This document shows, one piece after another, positions 8,807 through 32,778 of a DNA stretch of 34,196 bases (positions are counted from its first letter, which is position 1; every line of letters starts with the position of its first letter). The notes beneath the pieces are model-generated. The model was not told the origin of the DNA, did not search any database, and saw only the letters and a program-made list of their open reading frames with translations. The DNA lies in IMG/VR virus record IMGVR_UViG_3300036815_000071, positions 1-34,196 of that record; one strand, given 5' to 3'. The stretch comes from a virus (lineage: Duplodnaviria > Caudoviricetes). The translations under genes and the position numbers were made by a program.

Positions 8807-9604
8807 ATGCCAGGCAACGGTTATCTCACCACGTGGCAGAAAGGGCAGTTCGAACCCGACCCGTTCGTAGCAACGGGCGCGGGCATGGTCGCCGGCGTGG
8901 TCGTGACGGGCGTGGTCGGCCACGCCACGAACCTGACGACGGGCACGACCTACGACCTCTACGAGAACGCGGCTACGGTTCCGCTTTACCCGTGGTTCAC
9001 GGCCGCGCACCCGTTGCAGATCGCATCGGCCTCAGCGAACGACACGGTTGCCGGCAGTGGCGCGCGGCGCGTGACGCTGACCGGGTTGGACGCGAACTAC
9101 AACCTTTTGCAGGAAACGTTGGTAACGAACGGCGTGACGCCTGTCATCACGACGAACAGTTTCCTTCGGTTGAACAAGGCGGAAGTGACGCTGGCAGGAA
9201 CGCTCACGGGTTCCCCGAACGCGGGGGACATCACTGTGGCGCAGTCGGGCGGCGCGAACGTGCAGGCGATTATCCGCGCGGGCTTCGGCATCGGCGCATC
9301 GGGCGTCTACACCGTGGCGGCGGGCATGAGCGCGGTGGTTACGTTGGTGCAGTTCTCGCTAGCAGGCGCGGGCGCCGCGAACTTCGCCCAGGTTGGTCGC
9401 GCGGACAACGGCGGCGGGGCCATGAGCATCGGGTTGCGTTTCGACATCAACTCCGGGTTTCCTTTCGAGCAAGCCGTGCCAGGTGAAATTTTCTTGCCGA
9501 GCAAGACAGACACCGCGATCCGCGTGATCAGCGTCGGGCAGGCGTCAAGCGAGGTTGCGGGGTTGCTGAACATCACTTTGTTCGATAATTCGTACCTGTC
9601 CTGA
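8807..9604 (+). CDS. Putative virion structural protein of unknown function
   Basis: AAGGAG RBS; T/G/A/V-rich and beta-strand-like; SASANDT..GSGAR.V.L.GLDANY motif recalled from phage hypotheticals; coupled to the terminase start. Confidence 0.75.
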   Translation: MPGNGYLTTWQKGQFEPDPFVATGAGMVAGVVVTGVVGHATNLTTGTTYDLYENAATVPLYPWFTAAHPLQIASASANDTVAGSGARRVTLTGLDANYNLLQETLVTNGVTPVITTNSFLRLNKAEVTLAGTLTGSPNAGDITVAQSGGANVQAIIRAGFGIGASGVYTVAAGMSAVVTLVQFSLAGAGAANFAQVGRADNGGGAMSIGLRFDINSGFPFEQAVPGEIFLPSKTDTAIRVISVGQASSEVAGLLNITLFDNSYLS

Positions 9605-11607
9605 TGGCGAGCATGACCAGCGCAGCGACGCTGCGCATCATTTCGGAAGACCGGGCGCTAGCGAGCACGATGGTGTTCCCGCACCGGCACCCGCAGGCGT
9701 CGCCCCCGGCGCATGTGGAAGTAATGGACCTGTGGCGGAGCCAGGATGAGTTCGTGCTGATTGAGATGTTCCGGGAAGGGGGGAAATCTACTCTCTCGGA
9801 AGAATTCCTTCTCATGGAAGCCTGCTTCCAGAACTTTGGCTACTGCATCATCCTGGGCGAGACGTACACGAAAGCCTGCCAGCGGCTCGAGGCGATCAAG
9901 TTCGAAGCGTTGAAGAACATGAAGTTGCTGGCGTTATTCGGGAAGCTGAGAGTCGCCGGCAACGTGTGGAATGAGAATCAGATCGAGCTCGCCAACGGTG
10001 TGATGATCGAGGCGCACGGGTGGGAAGAGGAAATCCGGGGCTTCAAGTGGCATGACTTGCGCCCCGACCGCTGCTACCTGGACGACGTTGAGAACAAGGA
10101 GCGGGTCAAGTCGAAGGGAGCGGTTGACGCCTCGATGCGCAAGATTTATCTCGAACTCATGCCCGCGATGGACAAGGAGAAAGGGAAAATCCGCGTGACC
10201 GGCACGCCGTTGGCTGAAGACTGCATGATCGTGCGCATGCGGACGAACCCCGACTGGACAGCGCGGTCATACCCGATTTGCAACGGGGATATCGACAACC
10301 CGGCGACGGCCGCACTGTGGCCGGAACGCTACCCGATGGAATGGATTCGCAAGAAGCGGGACCAGGCGGAACGCGCCGGCCAGTTGCGCGGCTTCCTGCA
10401 AGAATACATGCTGATGGCAATCGGCAGTCAGGATAAGCCATTCGAAGCGGAGCACATCCATGAGACAGCGCTCGACCCGGCCCCGTGGCTTCCTAAGACT
10501 CTCATTGTGGATCCTGCTCGCACCGCTAACGTTGGCACTTCTGATCGGACTGGACGTGTGGTTGTTTCCCGCCTCGCCACCAAAATCCTTGTGCACGCCA
10601 GTTCCGGCGAGTACTGGAAGCCAGACCAAATCATCGCGGATGCTTTTGGTACCTCCAGCCGATTTGACGGCGCAACGGTGGCGATTGAAAAGAATTCTCT
10701 AGACGAATGGTTGCTTCAGCCAATGCGCGCGGAGATGTTGCGACGCGGCGAGAGTTTGCCGCTCAAAGCGATCCAGGCCCCGCAGGACCGCTCGAAGGAA
10801 CAGTTCATCATGGGCTTGCAGCCGTTTTTTGAAGCGGGCGACATTGTGTTGGTCGGCGGGCGCGGCGCGCATGCGCAGCTCGTCGCCGAGATTTTGAACT
10901 TCCCTTCAGGCAAGCGAGACATCTTGAATGCCTTGGCTTACGCGCAACGCGTCTTTTCCGGAACGGTGGTGTATGAAGACTTCGGCGAAAAGAACCTTAC
11001 GAGCGAGTACGAACCGACAGCGCGCGACGCTTTGGCTATTTGCTTTAACGCCACAGGCAATGAGACTACCGCTGTTCTTGTGGCGGTTGAAGGCGAACGC
11101 CTTGTGGCTGTTGCCGACTGGATATCGCCTGTTTCGCCGGCGCAAGCCGTACCAGATGTGATGCAGTTGGTGCGCGCGGCATTCCCGCGAGCACGTGTCA
11201 CGGCGTGGCTCCCGGCCGATGTGATGGACCAGCAAGACCGCTTGCCGCTCATGGCGGCGTTGCGCGCGGCGAAGTTGAACCCGATGCGCGCGGCCTACTC
11301 CACGATGGCGCGCGGCACGCTATCGCCGCTGATCAGGACGGAGATGAAGGGCCGGCGGCTGTTCCTGGTCGACAGCAACGCGCGGCACACGATGAACGCG
11401 ATGGCGGGCGGATATAACTTTCCGGTCATGAAGAACGGCCAGCAGAACACGGAACCGGAGCGCGGCCCGCACCGTACGCTGATCGAGGGCCTGGAGTGCG
11501 CGGCCTACGTCATTTGCTCGAACGCTGGCAATTCCTTGCCGGATGATTTACATTCTGGTACTAATCCGCAAGGCGCAACCTATTTCACTTCTCTGCCGAG
11601 ACGTTGA
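9604..11607 (+). CDS. terL: Terminase large subunit with extra C-terminal domain
   Basis: FREGGKST (Walker A), IRG...RPD..YLDDVE (Walker B), VTGTP coupling motif, ALWPER, FLQEYM; nuclease IVDPA...IEKN...FPSGKRDILNALAYA. Confidence 0.93.
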   Translation: MASMTSAATLRIISEDRALASTMVFPHRHPQASPPAHVEVMDLWRSQDEFVLIEMFREGGKSTLSEEFLLMEACFQNFGYCIILGETYTKACQRLEAIKFEALKNMKLLALFGKLRVAGNVWNENQIELANGVMIEAHGWEEEIRGFKWHDLRPDRCYLDDVENKERVKSKGAVDASMRKIYLELMPAMDKEKGKIRVTGTPLAEDCMIVRMRTNPDWTARSYPICNGDIDNPATAALWPERYPMEWIRKKRDQAERAGQLRGFLQEYMLMAIGSQDKPFEAEHIHETALDPAPWLPKTLIVDPARTANVGTSDRTGRVVVSRLATKILVHASSGEYWKPDQIIADAFGTSSRFDGATVAIEKNSLDEWLLQPMRAEMLRRGESLPLKAIQAPQDRSKEQFIMGLQPFFEAGDIVLVGGRGAHAQLVAEILNFPSGKRDILNALAYAQRVFSGTVVYEDFGEKNLTSEYEPTARDALAICFNATGNETTAVLVAVEGERLVAVADWISPVSPAQAVPDVMQLVRAAFPRARVTAWLPADVMDQQDRLPLMAALRAAKLNPMRAAYSTMARGTLSPLIRTEMKGRRLFLVDSNARHTMNAMAGGYNFPVMKNGQQNTEPERGPHRTLIEGLECAAYVICSNAGNSLPDDLHSGTNPQGATYFTSLPRR

Positions 11608-12104: not shown

Positions 12105-12278
12105 ATGATGAAGCATCACAAGGACGGCAAAAGCACGTCCGAATCGCGCGACGTGCGCGAGTTCTTCGGCAAGACCTCGAAGAAGCCGGAAGCCGACGAC
12201 AAGCCCAAGCGCGTGCCGAAGGATCGGAACACCGGTTCGAAGCTCGCGAACAAGCTCAAAGGTAAGGTCATTGGTTGA
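12105..12278 (+). CDS. 57-aa Lys-rich microprotein MMKHHKDGKS...KLKGKVIG
   Basis: Tiles between the previous stop and the portal ATG (TGATG). Confidence 0.7.
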   Translation: MMKHHKDGKSTSESRDVREFFGKTSKKPEADDKPKRVPKDRNTGSKLANKLKGKVIG

Positions 12279-14455
12279 TGGCGCGCGCAAAAAAGAAAGA
12301 AGAAAAGAAGGATGAACCCGTAATCGAGATTGTCGATTCACGGGCGATTGACGCTGAAAAGACGGGCGAGGAGTTAGAGAACTGGGCTGAAGACATGACT
12401 TCGGATGCCTATCTCGACGCCTGCAAGCTGTACCCGAAGATTCAGAAGTGTTACGAGAACAAGCAACAGCAGTCCGACTGGGTGGAAGAGTACTGGAATA
12501 TCTATAATGCGCGCCCCGACGAAAACCAGCAGTACACCGGCAACAGCCAGTGCTACATACCCGCTGTTCGAGACGCGATCAATGCACGGTGCAAACGCAC
12601 CCTTGCAACGCTTTTTCCCGCGAACTACAAGCACGTTGACGCTGTCGGGCCTGCAAGCGTCACTCCTTTTCCTACGCTTGCCCTTCTTGAACACTACATC
12701 CGAAAGACGAACCTGAAGGACATCGTTCGCGCCGACTTGCTGTCGGGCGACGTGACCGGCCAGTGGTGTCTCTACGTCGATTGGATGCGCACGACGCGGC
12801 GCATCACCGAGCTAGTCAAGAAGCCGCCGATCCTCGCGAGTGACGACGGCGTTGAAGCCGAAGACACGACGGTTGATGAGGAATGGGACCTCGAAGAGAA
12901 AGAAATCGTTGACGAGATGCCCGACATCACGCCGCTGGCGGTTGATGACGTGGCAGTCTACCCGCCGACCGTGAACGACATTGAGCGCGCGATCGCTACC
13001 GCGGTACGCTTGCGCCTGTCGAAAGAATCCGTCCAGCAGTTTATTGACGAAGGCGTCTTCGTCGGTTGGAATGCAAAAGAGATAATGGACAACCTGAACG
13101 AGCCGGACGGCGGCCGTCAGAAGCGTGTCCCGAACAAGCGCCGTACCGCAGACGCGGGCGTGCGCACGGAAGGTACGTATAAGTACGCACTTATTTATGA
13201 AGTTCACACGAACATCGAACTGGAAGAGAGCAAGGGCAAAGAGCCGGTTTTCATCTACTACGCCGGTCCTGAAATCATTCTTGGCATTATCCGCAATCCA
13301 TTTTGGACTAAGAAGCGCCCGCTTATCACCGCGCCCGTTGAGCGCATCCAGGGCACGATCTACGGAATCTCGCGGGTAGAGCCGGTCAAGTACCTGCAAT
13401 GGAACTTGAACGACTATTGGAATATGGGTCAAGACAGCGCGCAATATGCGCTCCTGCCTATCGTGATGACCGACCCGCTCGCCAACCCGAACTATCAGTC
13501 AATGGTCATGGGCTTGGCCGCCGTCTGGCTGACGAACCCGCAAACGACGCAGTTCGCGCAGTTCCCCGCGATCTACAAAGACGCCGTGGGCTTGTGCAAC
13601 GCCATCAAGTCGCAGATTCAAGAGTCGATGGACGTGAACGATGCGATGCTTGGCAAGATGCCGCCGGGGCGCAAGAATCAGGCGCAAGCCGCAGCCCAAG
13701 CGCAATCGCAGGAATCGAACATTATCGACCACGCCAAGCGCTACGAAGGCGTGATCCTGAATCCGCTACTTGAACGCATGTTCGAACTCGACCGCCAGTT
13801 CCGCACCAAGGAACTGACGGTCGTCACGATGGGCGAAGTCGGCGCACGCGCGAAGCAAGAAGAGATTCCCGTGCAAGCCTTCAGCGAGCGCTACTTCTTC
13901 CGTTGGTGCGGTACGGCCTACCAGACCGGCATGCAACGCATGCAGCAGATGATTGCCTGGATGAACGTGCTGCGCGGCGTGCCGCCGCAACAGCTTGACG
14001 GCCGCCGGCTGAATGTCGGTCCGATCCTGGAAATGGGCACCGAACAGATATTCGGCCCCGAAGTCGCGCCGCGTATTCTGATCGATGAACGCAACCTGTT
14101 CCACGTCGATCCCGAAGACGAGAACCTGATGATGCACAACGGCATGCCTGCTGAAGTGCACCCGGCGGATGATGACCAACGCCACCTGAAAACGCACATG
14201 CACGGCGCGCAGATGACAGGCGACCCGGTCGGGTTGTTCCGCGCGCACATCCAGGCGCACATGCAAGCAATGCAACAGAAGATGCCGAAGCCAGCAGGAC
14301 CGCAACCCGGCCAGCCGGGCGTACCCGGTGGCGGAGCACCGGGGGTCGCCGGAACACCGCGCCCCGGCGCGCAACCCGGCCAGCCGCGCCCGCAAGGACC
14401 GCCGGGTATGGTGCACCCTGACCAAGTCGCAGACCCGCAGATGGGGCCGCGATGA
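12278..14455 (+). CDS. Portal protein (P22-like podovirus type)
   Basis: About 725 aa after terL; IYGISRVEPVKYLQ..LN motif, LNPLLERMF helix, P/Q/G-rich C-terminal tail. Confidence 0.87.
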   Translation: MARAKKKEEKKDEPVIEIVDSRAIDAEKTGEELENWAEDMTSDAYLDACKLYPKIQKCYENKQQQSDWVEEYWNIYNARPDENQQYTGNSQCYIPAVRDAINARCKRTLATLFPANYKHVDAVGPASVTPFPTLALLEHYIRKTNLKDIVRADLLSGDVTGQWCLYVDWMRTTRRITELVKKPPILASDDGVEAEDTTVDEEWDLEEKEIVDEMPDITPLAVDDVAVYPPTVNDIERAIATAVRLRLSKESVQQFIDEGVFVGWNAKEIMDNLNEPDGGRQKRVPNKRRTADAGVRTEGTYKYALIYEVHTNIELEESKGKEPVFIYYAGPEIILGIIRNPFWTKKRPLITAPVERIQGTIYGISRVEPVKYLQWNLNDYWNMGQDSAQYALLPIVMTDPLANPNYQSMVMGLAAVWLTNPQTTQFAQFPAIYKDAVGLCNAIKSQIQESMDVNDAMLGKMPPGRKNQAQAAAQAQSQESNIIDHAKRYEGVILNPLLERMFELDRQFRTKELTVVTMGEVGARAKQEEIPVQAFSERYFFRWCGTAYQTGMQRMQQMIAWMNVLRGVPPQQLDGRRLNVGPILEMGTEQIFGPEVAPRILIDERNLFHVDPEDENLMMHNGMPAEVHPADDDQRHLKTHMHGAQMTGDPVGLFRAHIQAHMQAMQQKMPKPAGPQPGQPGVPGGGAPGVAGTPRPGAQPGQPRPQGPPGMVHPDQVADPQMGPR

Positions 14456-14796
14456 AAGGCTATATTGCTCGATCAACGTTGTGGGGAACGATCCAAACGA
14501 CGGATCGTTTTTACGCATTGCCGATTGAGCAACAAATCGCGGTATCGATGCACGAAGCCGCGCACATCAAGCATAAACACGCGTGGAAGCGCCTCGGATG
14601 GATTCTGACCGGGAAAGCGTTCTTCCGGACAGAACGCTTTTTCGCGATGTGCGCCGCGCAGGAACTTGAAGCCGACAGCCACGTACGCGACAGCGGATAC
14701 GGTCGTGAACTGGCAGCTTTTCTGATTTCGCGGGGCATGAGCGCCGCGCCGGGGTATCCTTCTGTGAGAAGCAGATTGGAGAACCTCAATGTCTGA
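14452..14796 (+). CDS. Small M48/M56-like zinc metallopeptidase
   Basis: EQQIAVSMHEAAHIKHKH (HExxH), QELEAD (ExxAD third ligand), GYPSVRSRL (like HP...R). Confidence 0.8.
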   Translation: MKGYIARSTLWGTIQTTDRFYALPIEQQIAVSMHEAAHIKHKHAWKRLGWILTGKAFFRTERFFAMCAAQELEADSHVRDSGYGRELAAFLISRGMSAAPGYPSVRSRLENLNV

Positions 14797-15043: not shown

Positions 15044-15261
15044 CCGAACTTTACGGCCTACCGCAACCGCTGACCGGCGCGGAAACAGTTACGATCCACC
15101 AGTCGCAGAACGGTCAACTCGTTAAGTGCACAATGCCGCTGTACGAACTGGCAGCAATCTTGAACACGTCTTCCACCGCATGGGCATCTACTTTGCCGAC
15201 CACGCGCCCCGCAACGGCGGGCGTACTTTGGAACAATGGCGGAGCCGTCTCGATATCATGA
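15040..15261 (+). CDS. Small putative tail-associated protein sharing the C-terminal motif of the upstream gene
   Basis: C-terminal LPTTRPATAGVLWNNGG motif. Confidence 0.7.
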   Translation: MTELYGLPQPLTGAETVTIHQSQNGQLVKCTMPLYELAAILNTSSTAWASTLPTTRPATAGVLWNNGGAVSIS

Positions 15262-17477
15262 AAAAACTATTCGCGCTTCTCCTTTTCGTCTCGACGGTCG
15301 CGCTCGGGCAGACCTATCCGTCGCCGACGTACAACGCCCTGACTGTTCAAAGCGCGTTCAACGCAACCGGCCTCGTCACCCTGGCGGACCACGCGACGCA
15401 AGCCGCGAACACGATCATAGGCAACGCTACCGGCTCCCCGGCCAGCCCGACAGCGGTCACCGTCACCGGCTGTAACGGCGCCGCGCAGGCACTGCAATGG
15501 ACGAACGGTTCGGGGTTCGGCTGCAACAGCGCGATAATCGCTTCCAACGTCTCGGGCATCGTTGCGCCGGCTAACGGCGGCACGGGTACGACAACCGGCC
15601 TCACGCCCTACGCGCCCACACTCGCGACAATCGCGGCTTTGAACGCCGCCACGTCGGCCACGCTTCCGCAGTCGCAAGTGATCATCGCCGGGTTCTCGAC
15701 GGCGGGCGATGCTGGCGCGGGGCTCTTCAACATCGGCGCGACAACAACCGCGAACGGTTGCACGATTTTCAACGATGCGTCCGGGCGCAGTTGGTATCGG
15801 CAGACAACCGGGAACGTCACGAATGTGCGCTGGTGCGGTGCAAAGGGCGACGGCTCGACCAACGACACAACCGCATTCGTGAACGCGGTCGCGGTCGGCA
15901 AATCGATCTTCGTACCGGACGGCAACTACCAGGTTCTCGACAACAATATTGTCCTGACCGCCGGTCAAGCACTGGAAGGCCCAAGCTTCGCGACTTTCGC
16001 ACCGGGCGCATTCACTGGCGCGGGCGTGATCATAAACTGCACGAACAACACCGGCCACGCCTGTATCGCGGTAACGGCAAACGTGACTTGGATAACAATC
16101 GCCAACGTGACGATTACCCGTTCTGTTTCGCCGGTCGGAACGGCGGCGGTAGGCAGCAACGGTATTCAATTCAACGGCTCGACGCAATACGCCAATATTC
16201 ACGATGTCTACGTATATAACCAGTACATCGGTTTGGTGTTGCACGACACGACGACCAGCTACCTCACGAATGTGACGGTGACTAACAACGGGTTTGACGG
16301 CGTAAGCGTTACTAACGTTTCCGTTGGCCCGTTGCAATGGGTCATGAGCAACGTGCTGTCGGAAGACAACGGGCACGACGGATTCATTATCCAGTCGTTC
16401 AACGTGGGCGGCGCAACGTCCATCAGCTTATCGAACATGGATAAGATTTTCACGTTTGGCAATACGAATGTCGGTTTCGCGATAGTTGGGACCGTAGGCC
16501 AGCCTCTATTTGGCCCCCGTTTGACCAACTGCTTCCTGGGCGGCGACGGCAACGATGAGATTCTGTTCACCGGCCAAGGGGGTGACGTTCAGATATCCGA
16601 TTGCTTTTTCGAGTTGTCCGGCACAGGCTTGACCGGCCCGCTCGGCACTACGGCCGCTTCCGGTCTCGGCAGCGGAATCGAGATTGACAACGGTTCCACA
16701 ATAAAGCTGACGAACAACATCATTAATGGTGAATCCGCTGATGGCATTTTGCTGGCCGGCGGTACGGCCATAACGGTCAGCAATAACACGATCACGAATG
16801 TCGGCCAGAACGCAAGCTCTTCGGCTACGGGACTCTTCATTTCGGCAGGCGTGACGGCGGATGTCACCGGCAACACGATCACCAACGTCTCCGGCAGCAC
16901 GACGCAGAAGTTCGGCATCAACAACGGCGGCACGATCAATGTCCTGAGCGGTAACAACCTAACAGGCAACATCACTAACAATTACACGGGGAACGCCGCG
17001 ACGGATTCGTGCAACGCGGGCGCTACTTGCACCTTCAATCAACCGAGTGTCAACCAACCGAATATTGTTGGAGTGACGACCAACAGCAACGCCGCAACCG
17101 GTAGCGTAGGTGAATTCCTGACCAACCAAACGGGGCCGACCGCTTTCACGTCAGGCACTACGGCAGCCGCCACGAGCTTGACGCTTTCCGCAGGCGACTG
17201 GGACGTAGAATGCCTGGTGTCATTGGCTCCCGCAGGAACGACAGTTGTTTCAGGTGTCATTCTCGGCGTAAGCAATTCAGGAACCGCATTCGGCGCGCTC
17301 GGCTCGTTTATCCAGATGAACGCCACCGCCGCGCAAGGTGCCGCGCAAACTTTCGCGTCTCCGGTCGTGCGGGTAAGTCTCGCCGCATCTACGACATATT
17401 TTTGCCCCGCAAACATCGGCTTCACCGTGAGCACTTTGAATGCGACGGGCTTCATTCGTGCGCGTCGCGTGCGTTAA
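15258..17477 (+). CDS. Tailspike / polysaccharide depolymerase (right-handed beta-helix) with signal-peptide-like N-terminus
   Basis: NVRWCGAKGDGSTNDTTAF...IFVPDGNY (pectate lyase 3-like start), then Asn/Gly-rich beta-helix repeats. ATG at 15258 chosen from the ATGA overlap. Confidence 0.85.
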   Translation: MKKLFALLLFVSTVALGQTYPSPTYNALTVQSAFNATGLVTLADHATQAANTIIGNATGSPASPTAVTVTGCNGAAQALQWTNGSGFGCNSAIIASNVSGIVAPANGGTGTTTGLTPYAPTLATIAALNAATSATLPQSQVIIAGFSTAGDAGAGLFNIGATTTANGCTIFNDASGRSWYRQTTGNVTNVRWCGAKGDGSTNDTTAFVNAVAVGKSIFVPDGNYQVLDNNIVLTAGQALEGPSFATFAPGAFTGAGVIINCTNNTGHACIAVTANVTWITIANVTITRSVSPVGTAAVGSNGIQFNGSTQYANIHDVYVYNQYIGLVLHDTTTSYLTNVTVTNNGFDGVSVTNVSVGPLQWVMSNVLSEDNGHDGFIIQSFNVGGATSISLSNMDKIFTFGNTNVGFAIVGTVGQPLFGPRLTNCFLGGDGNDEILFTGQGGDVQISDCFFELSGTGLTGPLGTTAASGLGSGIEIDNGSTIKLTNNIINGESADGILLAGGTAITVSNNTITNVGQNASSSATGLFISAGVTADVTGNTITNVSGSTTQKFGINNGGTINVLSGNNLTGNITNNYTGNAATDSCNAGATCTFNQPSVNQPNIVGVTTNSNAATGSVGEFLTNQTGPTAFTSGTTAAATSLTLSAGDWDVECLVSLAPAGTTVVSGVILGVSNSGTAFGALGSFIQMNATAAQGAAQTFASPVVRVSLAASTTYFCPANIGFTVSTLNATGFIRARRVR

Positions 17478-17534: not shown

Positions 17535-18053
17535 GTGCGTAAATTACGTTTGGCCGAACTGATCGGCTCGTTGTTCCCGGCGATCCAAGGCCAGACGCCT
17601 GTGATCGCAGATAACGGCTCAATGCCGGATCAAATCAGCTTGATCAATGCTGTTCTGTCGATCAACCCTTGGCAGGCCGCAGTGTATAACGCCGCCGCCA
17701 ACACGACTGGTTTTACCGCAACGCAATCACAGGTCATGGCGGCGGAAGAAACTGTCCTTGAACTGACGGGTACCATCGGCGCGGGCGCGGCTCTCACGCT
17801 CCCGACAGTCGCCTCGATGATCGCCACGCTTACCCCCCAGCAAGCCGTAGTCGGCTCGACCACGACCCTTCGGATCGGGCGCGGCGCAACCGGCGCGTTC
17901 AACTGGACGGTAACAACCAACACCGGCTGGACGCTGAACGGTACGCAAACCATCGCTGCTTCCACGTGGCGCGATTTCATCATCCAGATCACGGCTGTCG
18001 GCGCAACGCCTACAGCCACGTGCACGCAGATCGGCGCGGGCGATTGGAGCTAA
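17535..18053 (+). CDS. Putative head decoration / minor capsid protein
   Basis: T/A/G-rich and beta-like, directly upstream of scaffold and capsid; carries the LFPAI leader. Confidence 0.7.
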   Translation: MRKLRLAELIGSLFPAIQGQTPVIADNGSMPDQISLINAVLSINPWQAAVYNAAANTTGFTATQSQVMAAEETVLELTGTIGAGAALTLPTVASMIATLTPQQAVVGSTTTLRIGRGATGAFNWTVTTNTGWTLNGTQTIAASTWRDFIIQITAVGATPTATCTQIGAGDWS

Positions 18054-18060
18054 ACCACAA

Positions 18061-18774
18061 ATGAACAAGCTGCTGAAAAAGCTGCTAGGACTTCTCTTTC
18101 CGGGGATTGACGGCGATGCTGATGACCTCCCTGATGATCTTCCTGCACCTGATCCCGACGATGATTTGCCTGACGATCTTCCTGACGACGATCTTCCTGA
18201 TGATCCTCCCGTTGCTGCCCGCCAACGCCGTGATGATGCTGCTGACCGTCTGGCTCGGCTGGAAGCTGAAGTCGAACGGCGCGGCCGCGCAGCGGAAGAG
18301 CGGGAACGCGCTTCCCGCACGCCAGCGGTAGACACGGAGTTCCAACGCGAAGAAGAGCGCTTGCGCGCCGCCGACGTGACGGAAATGGAACGCTGGCAGA
18401 TTCAGGCGAACCGCACGTTACGCGCAACGCAAGCCGAAGCACGGCAAGCGATGTTCCAGGCGCAAGACATGTCCGACCGGGCGCGCTTCGAGTCCAAGAT
18501 CGCCAGCGAACCGCGCCGCGCGAAGTACACCGAGCGCGTGGAAGAGGAAGTCAAGAAAGCGCAATCGCGCGGTCAGATGGCTTCCCGCGAAGATGTCTAC
18601 TACTGGATGCTCGGCAAGGACATTGCGGACGGCAAACTGAAGCCGAAAGCGAAATCTTCGCCGGCAGTTCCGCGCGGCAAGCCCGCAGGCGTTCGCAGCG
18701 ATGTTCAAGGACGAGGCCGTCCGAGTTCCGACCGTGACAAGCTGCGTTCGCGGCTTGACAACGTGAATATTTAA
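18061..18774 (+). CDS. Capsid scaffolding protein
   Basis: Acidic disordered N-terminus, coiled-coil middle, basic C-terminus; immediately upstream of the capsid gene. Confidence 0.8.
   Translation: MNKLLKKLLGLLFPGIDGDADDLPDDLPAPDPDDDLPDDLPDDDLPDDPPVAARQRRDDAADRLARLEAEVERRGRAAEERERASRTPAVDTEFQREEERLRAADVTEMERWQIQANRTLRATQAEARQAMFQAQDMSDRARFESKIASEPRRAKYTERVEEEVKKAQSRGQMASREDVYYWMLGKDIADGKLKPKAKSSPAVPRGKPAGVRSDVQGRGRPSSDRDKLRSRLDNVNI
18121..18210 (+). repeat. Coding tandem repeat (DDLP)n in the scaffold gene
   Basis: Degenerate 12-nt units such as GATGACCTCCCT and GATGATCTTCCT, encoding DDLP several times. Confidence 0.8.
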
Positions 18775-18789
18775 CCCTGAGAGGAAACC

Positions 18790-20217
18790 ATGAAATCTTT
18801 CCGTCAATTGGCCCTCTTTCGGGCTTTGTCGACGCTGTTCCCCGGCGTGACCAACCAATCGACCAGCTTCACGGCCGACGTTGAAGCGTACATTCAAGAA
18901 GAAGTTGAGCCGCTGGCGCGCCGGCAACTGGTCGCATACCAGTTCGGCAAACCGCTGAAGCTCGACACGAATCGCGGCACGACCTACACGGCCTCGCGCT
19001 ATCAGCGCTTGCCCTTGCCGTTCGCGCCCTTGCAAGAAGGCGTAGCGCCTCCCGGCGAAGGGATGGCCCTGCAACAAGTCTCGGCCACCGCGCAACAGTG
19101 GGGCGATCGCGTCATCATCACCGACGTCGCGAACCTGACCATCAAGCACCCGCTGTTCCAGCAAGCGTGCGAACTGGTCGCGCTGCAACTGCCCGAAACG
19201 CTTGAGCGCAACACGTTCAACACGCTGATGGCAGCTACGCAAGTGAACTACGCGAACGGCAAAGCGAGTCGCGCGAACCTGCTGGCAACCGACGTGATGA
19301 CGCCGCATGAGAACAACCGCATTGTCGGTTCGTTCCTGACCTTCGGCGTGCCCCGCTTCATGGGCGACGAGCGTGAAGACATGATGATTGAGGCCGGCGC
19401 TTACCGCGACCCGTCGAAGTCTCCCGCCGTCATGCAGCACTACATTGCGCTGATTCACCCGCTGTCGGCGCAGGACATGCGTGAGAACACGACGGTCGTG
19501 AACGCGTGGTCGTACAGCGATGTGAACCGCCTGTACAACAACGAACTCGGCCCGTTCGGCGGTTCGCGGTTCGTTGAGTCGAACATGATGCCGTACTTCA
19601 CGGGTGCAGCCGCCATCCAGGGCACCGCGTCCGCGTCCGGCGGCACGCTGGCGACCAATGCCGGTTACCAGATCATCGTGACAGCAGCGCCCGCGCAAAC
19701 GTCCGTTGAGCAGGTCATCTACCAAGTGTCGAACGCGATCAGCGTCACCGGCCCGACGGGTTCGATCAGCGTTGTCCTGCCGCAACTGGCCGGGTACATC
19801 TTCAACGTGTACATCGGCACGTCGGCCACGCCGTCGAACCTGGCAACCGCCATCGGCTTGGGCGTGCCTGTCACCGGCCCGCTCGCTGGCCAAGCTACGC
19901 AGTTGCTCCCGAACCAGACCGTGACCCTCACGGGCATCGGCGTGGCGCAAACGCCGCCGGCTGCTCCCGCCACGGGCGTGAGCGTGTTCCCGACCATCTA
20001 CATCGGCAACCACTCCTACGGCCAAGTGCTGCTCGAAAACCCGGAATTCCACTACCTGACGGGCGCGGACAAGTCGGACCCGCTGAATCAGACGCGTGTC
20101 GTGTCGTGGAAGGTCTTTTACGGCTCGATCATCCTCAACCAAGCGTTTTTGGCTCGCGTTGAAGCTGGTTCCGCATTTACGCCGGGGTATACTGGCGGCA
20201 CTGTGACAACCCCGTAA
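18790..20217 (+). CDS. Major capsid protein (N4-gp56-like family) with internal insertion domain
   Basis: LVAYQFG, RGTTYTASRY, PLQEGVAP, QWGDRVIITD, YIALIHP...DMR, ELG.FGG.RFVES, DKSDPLNQ..VVSWK. Confidence 0.92.
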   Translation: MKSFRQLALFRALSTLFPGVTNQSTSFTADVEAYIQEEVEPLARRQLVAYQFGKPLKLDTNRGTTYTASRYQRLPLPFAPLQEGVAPPGEGMALQQVSATAQQWGDRVIITDVANLTIKHPLFQQACELVALQLPETLERNTFNTLMAATQVNYANGKASRANLLATDVMTPHENNRIVGSFLTFGVPRFMGDEREDMMIEAGAYRDPSKSPAVMQHYIALIHPLSAQDMRENTTVVNAWSYSDVNRLYNNELGPFGGSRFVESNMMPYFTGAAAIQGTASASGGTLATNAGYQIIVTAAPAQTSVEQVIYQVSNAISVTGPTGSISVVLPQLAGYIFNVYIGTSATPSNLATAIGLGVPVTGPLAGQATQLLPNQTVTLTGIGVAQTPPAAPATGVSVFPTIYIGNHSYGQVLLENPEFHYLTGADKSDPLNQTRVVSWKVFYGSIILNQAFLARVEAGSAFTPGYTGGTVTTP

Positions 20218-23449: not shown

Positions 23450-24064
23450 ATGCCTATCATCGGAACGCTACCGAACAATATTCAGAATGGTCAGACGGTT
23501 GATGCCACGCCGGTTATGGCCGACTTCAATTTCATCGTGAATCAGGTGAACGCAAACGCGAACCCGACCGGCACGCTGACAGCGCCTTCAGGCACGCGCA
23601 CGATTTTCCACCAACTAGCGGCTCCGGTCGGTTGGACAATCGATGCGACTATCACCGATCACACTATCCAGATCGACCCTTCGAATGCAGGGCTTACAGG
23701 CGGTGTGAACGGCTACAGTACTATGTTTGCCCTGCCTTGGACTTCAGACGGACACGCGCTCACTACGGCCGAGTTGGCGGCGCACAATCACGGCGTGAAT
23801 GACCCTTCCCACACGCACACGGATTCGGGGCACTCGCATATCTACCCGTCCGATCTGTTAGCGTCAGCTGGCGCTGCGGCTATGCTTGCCGCCAACCAGG
23901 GTATATCTAACACGCGTCCGCTCCCTACTAACTCAGCAACCGCGAATATCCAGGCCAGCGCCACCGGCATTAGCATTCAGAACGCCGGCAGCGGCACGGC
24001 GCACTCGCACACCAAGACGTTCAACGTGCTCGTAGCGGCTGTCATTATGTGCCAGAAGACATGA
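23450..24064 (+). CDS. Short tail fibre / needle with collar-like domain
   Basis: NGQTVDATPVMADFNFI N-terminus, APVGW, HALTTAELAAHNH..DPSHTH...HSH (HxH repeats), IMCQK. Confidence 0.75.
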   Translation: MPIIGTLPNNIQNGQTVDATPVMADFNFIVNQVNANANPTGTLTAPSGTRTIFHQLAAPVGWTIDATITDHTIQIDPSNAGLTGGVNGYSTMFALPWTSDGHALTTAELAAHNHGVNDPSHTHTDSGHSHIYPSDLLASAGAAAMLAANQGISNTRPLPTNSATANIQASATGISIQNAGSGTAHSHTKTFNVLVAAVIMCQKT

Positions 24065-25174: not shown

Positions 25175-25551
25175 TGGCACTCGATCCCGTTACCGGCGCG
25201 CTCGACCTCGCGAGCACCATCGTCAACAAGATATGGCCCGACAAGTCGCAGCAGGAACAGCAGCAGCTCGCCGCCGTGCTCGCGATGGTCCAGGGTCAGA
25301 TGGCGATTGACCAGGCCGAAGCCACGAGCACCGATCCGCTGCAACACTGGCGCGGGGGCTTGGGCTGGGTTTGCGTTATGGGCTACTTCTGGAACTTCGT
25401 GGGCGAACCGCTCACGAACGCCGTATCGCAAGCGCTCGGCCACCCACTCGCACTTCCAGGCCTCGATATTGGCCCGCTCGCCACGCTCACGCTTGGCATG
25501 CTTGGCCTTGGCGGTTTGCACGTTGCCGCGCAGATGAAAGGTGGTTCGTGA
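25174..25551 (+). CDS. Holin (3TM/GTA-type)
   Basis: KIWPD, EA.S......WR...GWVC, L.TL..GMLGLGGL motifs. Confidence 0.8.
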   Translation: MALDPVTGALDLASTIVNKIWPDKSQQEQQQLAAVLAMVQGQMAIDQAEATSTDPLQHWRGGLGWVCVMGYFWNFVGEPLTNAVSQALGHPLALPGLDIGPLATLTLGMLGLGGLHVAAQMKGGS

Positions 25552-26114
25552 ACAATCTAGTCAAAATCGCGCAGGGAATCGACACCGCGCCTTTGCTGCT
25601 CGCCATCGCGCGCCAGCCAAAGCTGTGGAACCGGCACAAGTGGCGCAAGGAAGGCTTTGAGAACAGCCCGCACGTTGGCTCTTCGGATATCTGGCTGCGT
25701 TACAACGACGAGAAGCCGTTCAAGGAATCAGGCGACTGGTCAACCTTCAACGATGCGCACGACCCGATTTTCTACCCCGAGTGGTATGCGTTGCCGCAAG
25801 CGCGGCCAATCGTTTTCGGGCTGATGGCGCGCGTGGAAGGAACCCGGCTTGGCGGTATCCTGATTACGAAGATCCCCCCAGGCGGGCGCATCCTACCGCA
25901 CGTTGACGATAGCTGGCACGTTCGGCATTACAATACGAAGTTGTATGCAGTTTTGCAGTCAAACCCTCAGTGCGTCAACCGAGTGGAAAACGAGCAAGTC
26001 GCGATGGCCCCCGGCGAGGCTTGGTACTTCGACAATACGAAAGAGCATGAAGTCGTGAACGACGGGCCAGATGACCGTATCAGTTTGATTATCTCGATCA
26101 GGTGCGAAAAGTGA
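25548..26114 (+). CDS. Aspartyl/asparaginyl beta-hydroxylase family 2OG-Fe(II) oxygenase
   Basis: ITKIPPGGRILPHVD (HxD), GEAWYFDNTKEHEVVN (distal H), DRISLI (2OG-binding R); GTGA-coupled start. Confidence 0.88.
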   Translation: MNNLVKIAQGIDTAPLLLAIARQPKLWNRHKWRKEGFENSPHVGSSDIWLRYNDEKPFKESGDWSTFNDAHDPIFYPEWYALPQARPIVFGLMARVEGTRLGGILITKIPPGGRILPHVDDSWHVRHYNTKLYAVLQSNPQCVNRVENEQVAMAPGEAWYFDNTKEHEVVNDGPDDRISLIISIRCEK

Positions 26115-26392
26115 TCAAGCACCACTTTGCCGGCGGCGTGTACGCCCGCGAACAGACGCTCGACGCTGGTCAGGAAGTTGACAAGCATGTGCACGACTAT
26201 GACCACTTATCGTTTCTGTGCAGCGGCATTGCGATAGTGGAAGTCGGCGGCGACCTGCAAACGCTGCACGCGCCTTGCGCTTTGATGGTCAAAGCGGGCG
26301 AAACGCACAAGGTGTACGCGGTGACTGACATCGTTTGGCTCTGTATCCACGCGGAAGCGGTTGCTGATCCGGAAGTTATTGTTAAGGAGTAA
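26111..26392 (+). CDS. Small cupin-fold protein
   Basis: HHFAGGVYARE, HVHDYDH, AGETHKV, WLCIH. Confidence 0.85.
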   Translation: MIKHHFAGGVYAREQTLDAGQEVDKHVHDYDHLSFLCSGIAIVEVGGDLQTLHAPCALMVKAGETHKVYAVTDIVWLCIHAEAVADPEVIVKE

Positions 26393-31415: not shown

Positions 31416-31446
31416 CCACTATAGCAAATGCAAAATGAAAATACTA
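31416..31446 (-). promoter_or_regulatory. Leftward promoter, second exact copy of the 25-bp repeat
   Basis: Extended -10 TGCTATAGT on the minus strand; 31416-31440 is identical to 8203-8227. Confidence 0.7.
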
Positions 31447-32778
31447 GTAATTGATGTCGGCTCAAACGCTTTGGACCTGTGCATGCGCTGGCAACAGCAA
31501 GGGCATGAAGTGCGCTGGTATGACAAACCCCGTCCGGACGGTACCGATCGGCACGCGGGCGAAGGCATCATCACCAAGATTACCGATTTCAGCGACTTGC
31601 GCAAGAAGTGGATAGGCTGGGCTGACCTGATCTACACGCCAGACAACGTGTCGTATCTCGACCTGCTAGAGCCGTACCGCAAGATCGGCTACCCAATCTT
31701 CGGCTGCAATCTCGAAGCCGTTGAGTGGGAACTAGACCGGGAAGTCGGGCAAAAGATCATGGACGATTGCGGTATGCCATGCATACCCGGCAAGACGTTT
31801 CATGACTACAACTCAGCCATTGCTTATGTCAAGAAGCAGGGTAAGGCGTTCGTCTCCAAGCCTTCCGGTGACGGTGAACGCGCAATGTCCTACGTCGCTA
31901 ACAGCGCAGCCGATCTCGTCTACATGCTCCAGCGCTGGAATAAAATCCCGAAGTATGTTCAAGCTGCCCGTGAAATGGGCTTCATTCTGCAAGAAAAGAT
32001 TGACGGTATGGAAATGGCCGTTGGCGGTTGGTTCGGACCGGCTGGCTGGTCGAAAGCGGGATGGGTCGAGAACTTCGAGAACAAGAAGCTCATGAACGGA
32101 GACCTGGGCGTAAATACTGGGGAAATGGGCACGACCGTTCGTGTCGTTAAAAAGTCGAAACTCGCGGACCAAGTTCTTAAGCCGGCGACTGAAGCCCTCC
32201 ACAGGGTCGGTTACGTCGGATACGTCGATGTGAACTGCATGATAACGCACGATGGAGCTCCTTATCCGCTTGAGTGGACGATGCGCGACGGATGGCCGAT
32301 CCGCCACAACCTAACCGCACTGATCGAAGGCGACCAGGCGCAGTGGATGCTTGATTGGGTGAATGGTAAGGACACCCTGAAAATAAAACAGGATACCGTG
32401 TGCATCTCGGTCCTGATGGCGCTTCCCGACTTCCCGTACTCGAAGATCACGAACAAAGAACTGTGCGGAATCCCGATCTATAATGCGGAAGATATCGACC
32501 ATCTGCACTGGTCGGAAGTCATGATCGGCGACGCGCCGCGCGAAATAAACGGGAAAGTAGTTGACCTACCCGGCCCGGTGACGGCGGGGGACTACGTTCT
32601 AATAGCGACAGGTACAGGCGAGACGATAACAGGCGCTCGCCGCAGCGCGTACAGTGCATTGAAGAAAGTGAAGATACCGAATTCACCGTTTTACAGAACG
32701 GACATAGGAGCCGGTAGGTTGAAGAAACAGCTTCCCGATCTTCAACGTTTGGGTTATGCGATTGGTCTTTCATATTAG
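31435..32778 (+). CDS. PurD (GAR synthetase)-like ATP-grasp amide ligase
   Basis: MKILVID, PIFG......WELDR..GQ.IM, FVSKP, ILQEKIDGMEM, E.KKLMNGDLGVNTGEMG, GYVGY, LEWTMR.GWP. Confidence 0.85.
   Translation: MKILVIDVGSNALDLCMRWQQQGHEVRWYDKPRPDGTDRHAGEGIITKITDFSDLRKKWIGWADLIYTPDNVSYLDLLEPYRKIGYPIFGCNLEAVEWELDREVGQKIMDDCGMPCIPGKTFHDYNSAIAYVKKQGKAFVSKPSGDGERAMSYVANSAADLVYMLQRWNKIPKYVQAAREMGFILQEKIDGMEMAVGGWFGPAGWSKAGWVENFENKKLMNGDLGVNTGEMGTTVRVVKKSKLADQVLKPATEALHRVGYVGYVDVNCMITHDGAPYPLEWTMRDGWPIRHNLTALIEGDQAQWMLDWVNGKDTLKIKQDTVCISVLMALPDFPYSKITNKELCGIPIYNAEDIDHLHWSEVMIGDAPREINGKVVDLPGPVTAGDYVLIATGTGETITGARRSAYSALKKVKIPNSPFYRTDIGAGRLKKQLPDLQRLGYAIGLSY

Follow-up and report, generated by a model that had tools for sequence, protein, structure and literature searches.

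A shared N-terminal leader on unrelated virion proteins of a phage lineage and an M48-type peptidase as its candidate reader

Why should three otherwise unrelated proteins of a phage particle, encoded side by side, begin with the same kind of short basic peptide, and what might read it? This question is raised by a 34,196-base virus record (IMGVR_UViG_3300036815_000071; Duplodnaviria, Caudoviricetes), analysed here over its whole length and referred to as the window, in which a spike/decoration-like protein, a scaffolding protein and the major capsid protein each carry a leader ending in LFP[AG][IV]. The original prediction had regarded this leader as a new maturation or targeting signal read by a protease (the encoded HExxH peptidase or a host enzyme), by a modifying enzyme, or by a membrane or assembly site. 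By comparing the 43 window proteins with family libraries and the locus with related phages and prophages, it was found probable that a phage-encoded, 114-residue M48-type metalloprotease removes the leader as a shared tag between G/A and V/I, because the peptide is conserved, its end falls where leaderless relatives begin, and a catalytically intact enzyme accompanies it throughout one clade. The features on which this reading is based are as follows.

14452-14796, + strand: minimal M48-type zinc peptidase, 114 residues; candidate leader peptidase; gene start overlapping the stop codon of the portal gene
17535-18053, + strand: spike/decoration-like protein, 172 residues, GTG start; assigned from fold and position
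17535-17582, + strand: spike/decoration-like leader, 16 residues; LFPAI at 17571-17585; predicted cut between A16 and I17
18061-18774, + strand: scaffolding protein, 237 residues; assigned from its composition and its place ahead of the capsid gene
18061-18105, + strand: scaffold leader, 15 residues; LFPGI at 18094-18108; predicted cut between G15 and I16
18790-20217, + strand: major capsid protein of the N4-gp56 family, 475 residues
18790-18846, + strand: capsid leader, 19 residues; LFPGV at 18835-18849; predicted cut between G19 and V20

The leader in the window and among relatives

The three N-termini, their coordinates and their codons are as originally described, with 12, 11 and 15 residues before LFP in the spike-like, scaffold and capsid proteins (11-15 had been claimed), and their basic, amphipathic character is borne out by net charges of +2, +3 and +3 and best 11-residue hydrophobic moments of 0.58, 0.61 and 0.56. 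In a six-frame scan of the window, LFP[AG][IV] occurs exactly three times, each time closing such an N-terminus, and the near-matches were VFPGV in the primase (5305) and LFPAN in the portal protein (12611). The chance of the motif falling within the first 25 residues is about 7e-5 per protein and about 5e-9 for two further proteins, figures that are rough since they use the amino-acid frequencies of six window proteins and the motif was chosen post hoc. Over the 45 nucleotides ending in the motif, the leaders share only 22/45, 17/45 and 15/45 positions (33-49%), and they are therefore not recent DNA copies of one another. This low identity, together with a bias of substitutions to third codon positions, agrees with the earlier claim that selection acts on the peptide.

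It might be argued that the leaders are untranslated and that translation really begins at the Val codon, given that capsid V20 is encoded by GTG in the window and that the codon after the predicted cut (P1') is GTG in 60, but only 60, of 126 distinct capsid leader DNAs. Against this, a ribosome-binding site precedes the leader Met in 116/126 of these DNAs and the Val/Ile codon in 0/126, the P1' codons of the scaffold and spike-like genes specify Ile, and the changes in capsid leader DNA fall mostly on third codon positions (2661, versus 1740 and 1206 at the other two). The capsid starts thus withstand the possibility, raised at the outset, that the true starts lie downstream, and this explanation, already largely refuted, retains almost no credibility.

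Orthologues keep the leader, both in close viral loci and in a much wider set. In 80 close loci the spike-like, scaffold and capsid proteins all retain [LIVMF]-F-P-[AGS]-[IV] with few exceptions, F14 and P15 of the spike-like leader being nearly invariant (38 rows). All 56 capsid clusters of one clade (formed at 92% identity) carry a leader of the form M-basic-hydrophobic-[FLY]-[LF]-x-[PL]-[G/A]↓[VILA], in which the arrow marks the predicted cut; it is 14-25 residues long and contains 87 basic and 2 acidic residues among 983. Across the 56 clusters, P5 is F in 36, P4 is L/F in 50, P2 is L in 30, P in 25 and I in 1, P1 is G in 45, and P1' is V in 39, I in 7, L in 6 and A in 4, that is, aliphatic in 56/56. 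The supposed invariance of LFP does not hold in this wider family; because P2 and its neighbours vary over the 56 clusters, LFP is, as judged from these alignments, one dialect of a wider leader, with Pro-type and Leu-type forms.

The scaffold start is also leader-like in all 47 clusters, of the 56, whose scaffold gene was in view (read by eye). Nor is the leader specific to the head, as had been proposed, since relatives bear it on tail-fibre-like proteins: within the Leu-type branch it is found on six genes in L174 and L161 and on five in L169 (related loci are denoted by L and a number), including spike paralogues and tail-fibre-like proteins. As far as sequences can tell, conservation of the leader is at the peptide level and spans virion proteins that are unrelated to one another. 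The portal near-match was considered as an origin or target of the leader and rejected: among eight portals examined, [LM]FP was found at the same site in three leaderless and two Leu-type relatives, and two had no match.

A variant of the capsid leader was observed in one 93%-identical group (L014:3464-3610, L020, L028, L029 and L039), in which it is extended in frame to 49 residues, 32 longer, and still ends LFPG↓V. Six of six differences between two alleles of this leader are synonymous, which points to selection on the leader beyond the cut site; part of the insert resembles an unrelated extension in L219.

The predicted junction and the candidate enzyme

The position of the cut is suggested by relatives without a leader. 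The nearest leaderless capsids start with M-A-T-N, 11 residues before a conserved Asp, and their Met aligns with G19 and their Ala with V20 of the window capsid. Among leadered homologues of the tail-fibre-like protein at 23450, P1 is in register with the start Met of the window protein in 14/16. As two unrelated families give the same register, a cut between G19 and V20 in the capsid, and at G/A↓V/I generally, appears likely, and removal there would leave the N-terminus that leaderless forms obtain by loss of Met. The cut had originally been placed vaguely near P-G/A-I/V; its register is supported and can be narrowed by the leaderless alignments to the predicted G/A↓V/I bond, while cleavage itself is a prediction from alignment.

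Of the readers proposed, the phage's own HExxH peptidase is the strongest candidate, with invariant catalytic residues and a distribution that matches that of the leader. H34, E35, H38, E71, D75 and R108 are identical in 29/29 peptidase rows (22-50% identity), and alignment with Ste24p recovers the M48 zinc motif H34-E35-x-x-H38 with a downstream Glu (E71) as third ligand. PF01435 was matched by 28/29 peptidase homologues (best E 1e-15) and by the window copy not at all at E 0.01, and a profile search retrieved Ste24p at E 2.7e-5 as well as ZMPSTE24, HtpX and proabylysin. The structural model has a predicted local distance difference test score (pLDDT) of 94 (ESM Atlas, 0.97), and a Foldseek search with it returned ZMPSTE24/Ste24p in the top 11 rows, with ZMPSTE24 first (TMq 0.77; E 0.05 or worse). 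A study on ZMPSTE24 describes a preference for a hydrophobic P1' residue (PMC7948416), which fits the aliphatic P1' of 56/56 leaders.

The enzyme appears to be a minimal variant, in that no full transmembrane helix of the kind found in Ste24 and HtpX was predicted (best 19-residue hydropathy 0.84) and a short Trp-rich amphipathic segment follows HExxH; at the same place the L168 peptidase has a long hydrophobic insert. From this segment and this insert, association with the membrane might be guessed. A predicted complex of the peptidase, zinc and capsid residues 1-36 scored 0.28 against a mark of 0.32, with controls not folded. Co-evolution of peptidase and leader was considered and rejected, the 29-row peptidase tree following the capsid tree and not the leader type. 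Nothing was found that points to a modifying enzyme.

If this peptidase does remove the tag, the basic amphipathic helix would serve to dock the tag on the enzyme, probably on the side of the inner membrane that faces the cytoplasm. A small P1, together with Phe/Leu at P5-P4 and Pro/Leu at P2, would set the register, with the aliphatic P1' entering the S1' pocket. The cut would free the same N-terminus as that of leaderless relatives after Met loss. Because tail-fibre-like proteins are also tagged, cutting would likely not be confined to the prohead interior but act on subunits that are still free or in early assemblies; until it is removed, the tag may have a part in localisation or timing.

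Co-occurrence and alternative explanations

The distribution of leader and enzyme was compared in 80 capsid clusters from 282/297 loci (15/297 were dropped for having no anchor, no start or <380 residues, L212 being restored for the tree), of which 54 had the portal-to-capsid region in view; L384, whose locus does not reach the portal, was not counted. This leader is present in 18/18 clusters with the peptidase and in 0/36 peptidase-free clusters, of which 30 have short N-termini and 6 have other extensions. With more loci, the peptidase was found in 24/24 covered clusters of the clade and in 223/223 redundant loci. Searches of whole records detected it in 4/4 controls and in none of five outside records, of which a single one is a virus record with a completeness rating of 90% or more, and a Glaciimonas prophage relative has neither leader nor peptidase. 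The co-occurrence that the original prediction proposed to check is thus perfect, yet it has a single evolutionary origin: in a quick capsid tree built without the leaders, leader and peptidase occupy one clade (29 rows; Shimodaira-Hasegawa-like approximate likelihood ratio test, 99) beside a 29-row clade without both.

Several observations weigh against removal of the leader by this enzyme. Since one clade holds both, the co-occurrence represents a single gain and not an independent proof; no joint loss was found in the clade, and absence of the peptidase was mostly judged within 10 kb or less of the capsid gene. Other N-terminal extensions occur without the peptidase, clearly in L219, L247, L251 and L262 and with uncertain starts in L221 and L226, so that members of this capsid family can have leaders in the absence of an M48 enzyme. 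At P2, the capsid and scaffold leaders are either both Pro or both non-Pro in 43/47 clusters (scaffold read by hand; 9/56 clusters without a scaffold left out), and L169 has Pro on all five leaders inside the Leu-type capsid clade; but the two proteins disagree in 4/47, and the agreement does not reach significance when kinship is taken out (sign test on 4 independent pairs, p 0.25). No alignment column cleanly separates Pro-type from Leu-type enzymes (29 rows). The structural match to ZMPSTE24 reaches only E 0.05, full transmembrane helices are not predicted for the enzyme, the hosts encode M48 enzymes of their own, and among 50,697 records of isolated phages there was no peptidase match and no capsid of >28% identity.

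Other leader types without an M48 gene were also observed in the same capsid family (L237-L249, L257, L262-L267, L235, L251 and L250), some with the end VG↓A or VG↓L and others with MAGG↓A or IAGG↓A, a type that in L262 is also found on the scaffold. At L219:9399-9494, a 32-residue capsid extension ending ICY↓A stands beside a leaderless scaffold, again with no M48 gene, and the close relative L220 starts Met-Ala. In 34/63 listed open reading frames of L014, L091, L219 and L226, which have other or longer leaders, no second peptidase was found by Pfam. Leaders appear to have arisen several times in this capsid family, as distant members bear Prp-like and other leaders.

These distant leaders bear on the idea that a host protease cuts at the same place and that the phage M48 enzyme serves a different purpose, for instance quality control or cleavage of a host protein. 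The precedent is Staphylococcus phage 80alpha, whose capsid and scaffold leaders are cut by host Prp (PMC5744158); in Firmicute-type members of the window's capsid family there are LNL-x-LF leaders that resemble the Prp motif (as given in PMC9405229), the hosts have M48 enzymes, and the co-occurrence of leader and peptidase counts as one event. On the other side, a 19-position leader profile, short and used as a loose first look, revealed no host look-alike or L27-like mimic in five genomes: it matched three prophage genes in each of four Paraburkholderia/Burkholderia genomes, two other long frames weakly (E 3.5 and 4.4) and nothing in the Glaciimonas genome. Moreover, a Burkholderiales prophage relative lacks both leader and enzyme, and no member of the clade was seen with leaders but without the enzyme. 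The host enzyme proposed as a reader therefore finds no support in these genomes, and we regard this explanation as quite improbable.

Alternatively, the leaders might stay uncut as amphipathic helices that dock to the membrane or to each other, with the peptidase as a linked passenger. Their amphipathic and basic nature and the six synonymous differences in the 32-residue longer leader, indicating selection beyond the cut site, are in line with this, as is the finding in 80alpha that assembly needs the scaffold leader and not its cleavage (PMC5744158). Docking would leave unexplained why a small P1 and an aliphatic P1' stand exactly where leaderless homologues of two unrelated families begin, and why the enzyme is intact; we consider it unlikely. 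The same phage parallel and the alleles of the 49-residue leader suggest that it may be the leader, more than its removal, that counts.

Finally, the leaders could be degenerate export-type signal peptides that a signal peptidase of the host cuts, assembly being coupled to the membrane. The beta-helix spike-like protein at 15258-17477 has a classic-looking Sec signal peptide of 17 residues, kept in L053, L190 and L209 and ending near the same register, and such a signal is odd on a presumed virion protein. Signal-like N-termini that end near the same register are also present in 5/9 tail-fibre homologue matches in peptidase-free relatives (L281:17409, L288:14586, L295:15106, L300:13662 and L293:19147), and this family thus has, from its sequences, three N-terminal states, namely none, the phage leader and a signal-like one. 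The three window leaders differ from Sec signals in hydropathy and composition, their uncharged stretch being just 8 residues long and their mean hydropathy 0.4-0.7, compared with 14 and 1.7 in the 15258 signal; they lack a long hydrophobic core, A-x-A and a lipobox Cys, and end in FP[GA]. Capsids must, in addition, meet DNA in the cytoplasm. Export-type signals are therefore a very improbable origin of the leaders.

Neighbouring genes, known systems and implications

The gene layout of the window is podovirus-like, and relatives with about 81-83% capsid identity sit in Burkholderia and Paraburkholderia genomes. Besides the leader genes and the peptidase, the following features belong to the locus.

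9604-11607: terminase
12278-14455, + strand: portal protein, leaderless (phrog_332, phrog_1216)
Between 14452-14796 (peptidase) and 15258-17477: two small genes
15258-17477, + strand: beta-helix spike-like protein
23450-24064, + strand: tail-fibre-like protein, leaderless in the window (phrog_8469)

Membership of the capsid protein in the N4-gp56 family is indicated by matches to TIGR04387 (E 3e-38, 131.9 bits; curated cut-off 60) and phrog_1357 (E 4e-39). A region of about 150 residues after residue 305 lies outside the N4-gp56 and PHROG profiles and is common to the clade, possibly representing an inserted surface domain. The protein at 18061-18774, which has no family match in the PHROG, Pfam and NCBIfam libraries, is assigned as the scaffold from its place upstream of the capsid gene and its composition; an Asp/Pro-rich tract comes after the leader.

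The 172-residue protein likewise has no Pfam, PHROG or NCBIfam match, and its AlphaFold model (pLDDT 86) is a beta-sandwich whose best structural match is the Pa223 capsid spike 9ny6_C (Z 8.2, root-mean-square deviation 3.1, 95 aligned residues), with tailspike domains tying with it (Z 7.3-8.0). From modelled fold and position it is probably a capsid spike or decoration protein; the earlier label of decoration protein is no more than a guess at the level of the fold. Two tandem paralogues of this gene lie upstream of the scaffold in L155, L161, L169, L171, L178 and others, usually both with leaders, the longer one being leaderless in L205 and L384. Elsewhere in the window, a gene for a PurD-like ATP-grasp protein (31435-32778, + strand; TIGR00877 below cut-off) follows the internal virion genes and holds an equivalent position in the sister phages L219 and L221, and genes for an Asp/Asn beta-hydroxylase-like protein and a cupin (25371-26392, + strand) between the lysis and internal virion genes suggest protein or surface modification.

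Among known systems, the proposed one most resembles that of 80alpha and Prp, in which scaffold and capsid likewise have short basic, hydrophobic N-terminal extensions that end alike; Prp-like leaders also occur in distant members of the window's capsid family. The motif is distinct, as originally claimed: the P-site counts of the 56 clusters give F-h-x-[PL]-G↓V here, as opposed to LNLQ[FH]F↓A for the Prp system (PMC9405229). Furthermore, the candidate enzyme is a phage-encoded zinc protease instead of a host cysteine protease, no L27-like host mimic was detected in the five genomes with the short profile, and the tag also occurs on spike and tail-fibre-like proteins. As read here, the window system works like 80alpha/Prp but is not a member of it. 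Prp is described from Firmicutes, Fusobacteria and a few other phyla (PMC9405229).

The original prediction had treated normal assembly of LFP mutants as a refutation. In 80alpha, the scaffold leader is essential, and uncleavable capsid and scaffold mutants assemble normally and are viable though Prp cleavage is real, while a scaffold made in pre-cleaved form is not viable (PMC5744158); normal assembly of leader mutants would therefore be an unsafe refutation of cleavage. In phage Cp-1, a clan CR cysteine protease removes an N-terminal capsid extension of about 40 residues (PMC9405229), which is similar in that a phage-linked enzyme serves an N-terminal capsid extension and different in that a metalloprotease and tags of 14-25 residues on several proteins are proposed here.

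The prohead proteases HK97 gp4, T4 gp21 and lambda gpC are serine proteases that act inside proheads and remove scaffolding domains. The window peptidase is comparable to them in that its gene adjoins the portal upstream of scaffold and capsid and in its proposed processing of head proteins, and differs as a zinc enzyme with a short shared tag; no PHROG or Pfam match to a Ser-His prohead protease was found among the 43 window proteins. With M48 enzymes (Ste24p/ZMPSTE24, HtpX, BepA; PF01435) and minigluzincins (proabylysin) it shares HExxH, a downstream E-x-x-AD and a C-terminal [HY]P..R; the model suggests that the fold may be the same (TMq up to 0.77, E 0.05 or worse), and a hydrophobic P1' preference is predicted for it. 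Unlike Ste24p/ZMPSTE24, HtpX and BepA, it has 114 residues and no predicted full transmembrane helices, is encoded by a phage, and has virion leaders as its proposed substrates. No description of an M48 peptidase processing phage leaders was found in the literature covered, most subscription literature being outside its scope.

A broader and more tentative possibility is a movable tag-and-protease module, in which the leader could be gained or dropped by any virion protein and would keep head and tail subunits membrane-held or assembly-incompetent until a minimal Ste24-like zinc protease releases them. Such a module would represent a metalloprotease class of maturation enzyme that serves the particle in its entirety, and its 114-residue protease would be a model of Ste24/ZMPSTE24 catalysis with natural short substrates. 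If the peptidase does cut the leaders, a very small relative of Ste24/ZMPSTE24 and HtpX, possibly useful as a tool for tag removal, would form a testable enzyme-substrate pair consisting of a 345-bp gene and tags of 15-19 residues with a predicted bond, and the mature N-termini predicted in an extensive group, made up of soil phages and of Burkholderia/Paraburkholderia prophages, would be corrected. A zinc-dependent enzyme would then join the known phage maturation proteases, one capsid family would have picked up several different leader systems, and particle maturation in these phages would be unusual in depending on a metal.

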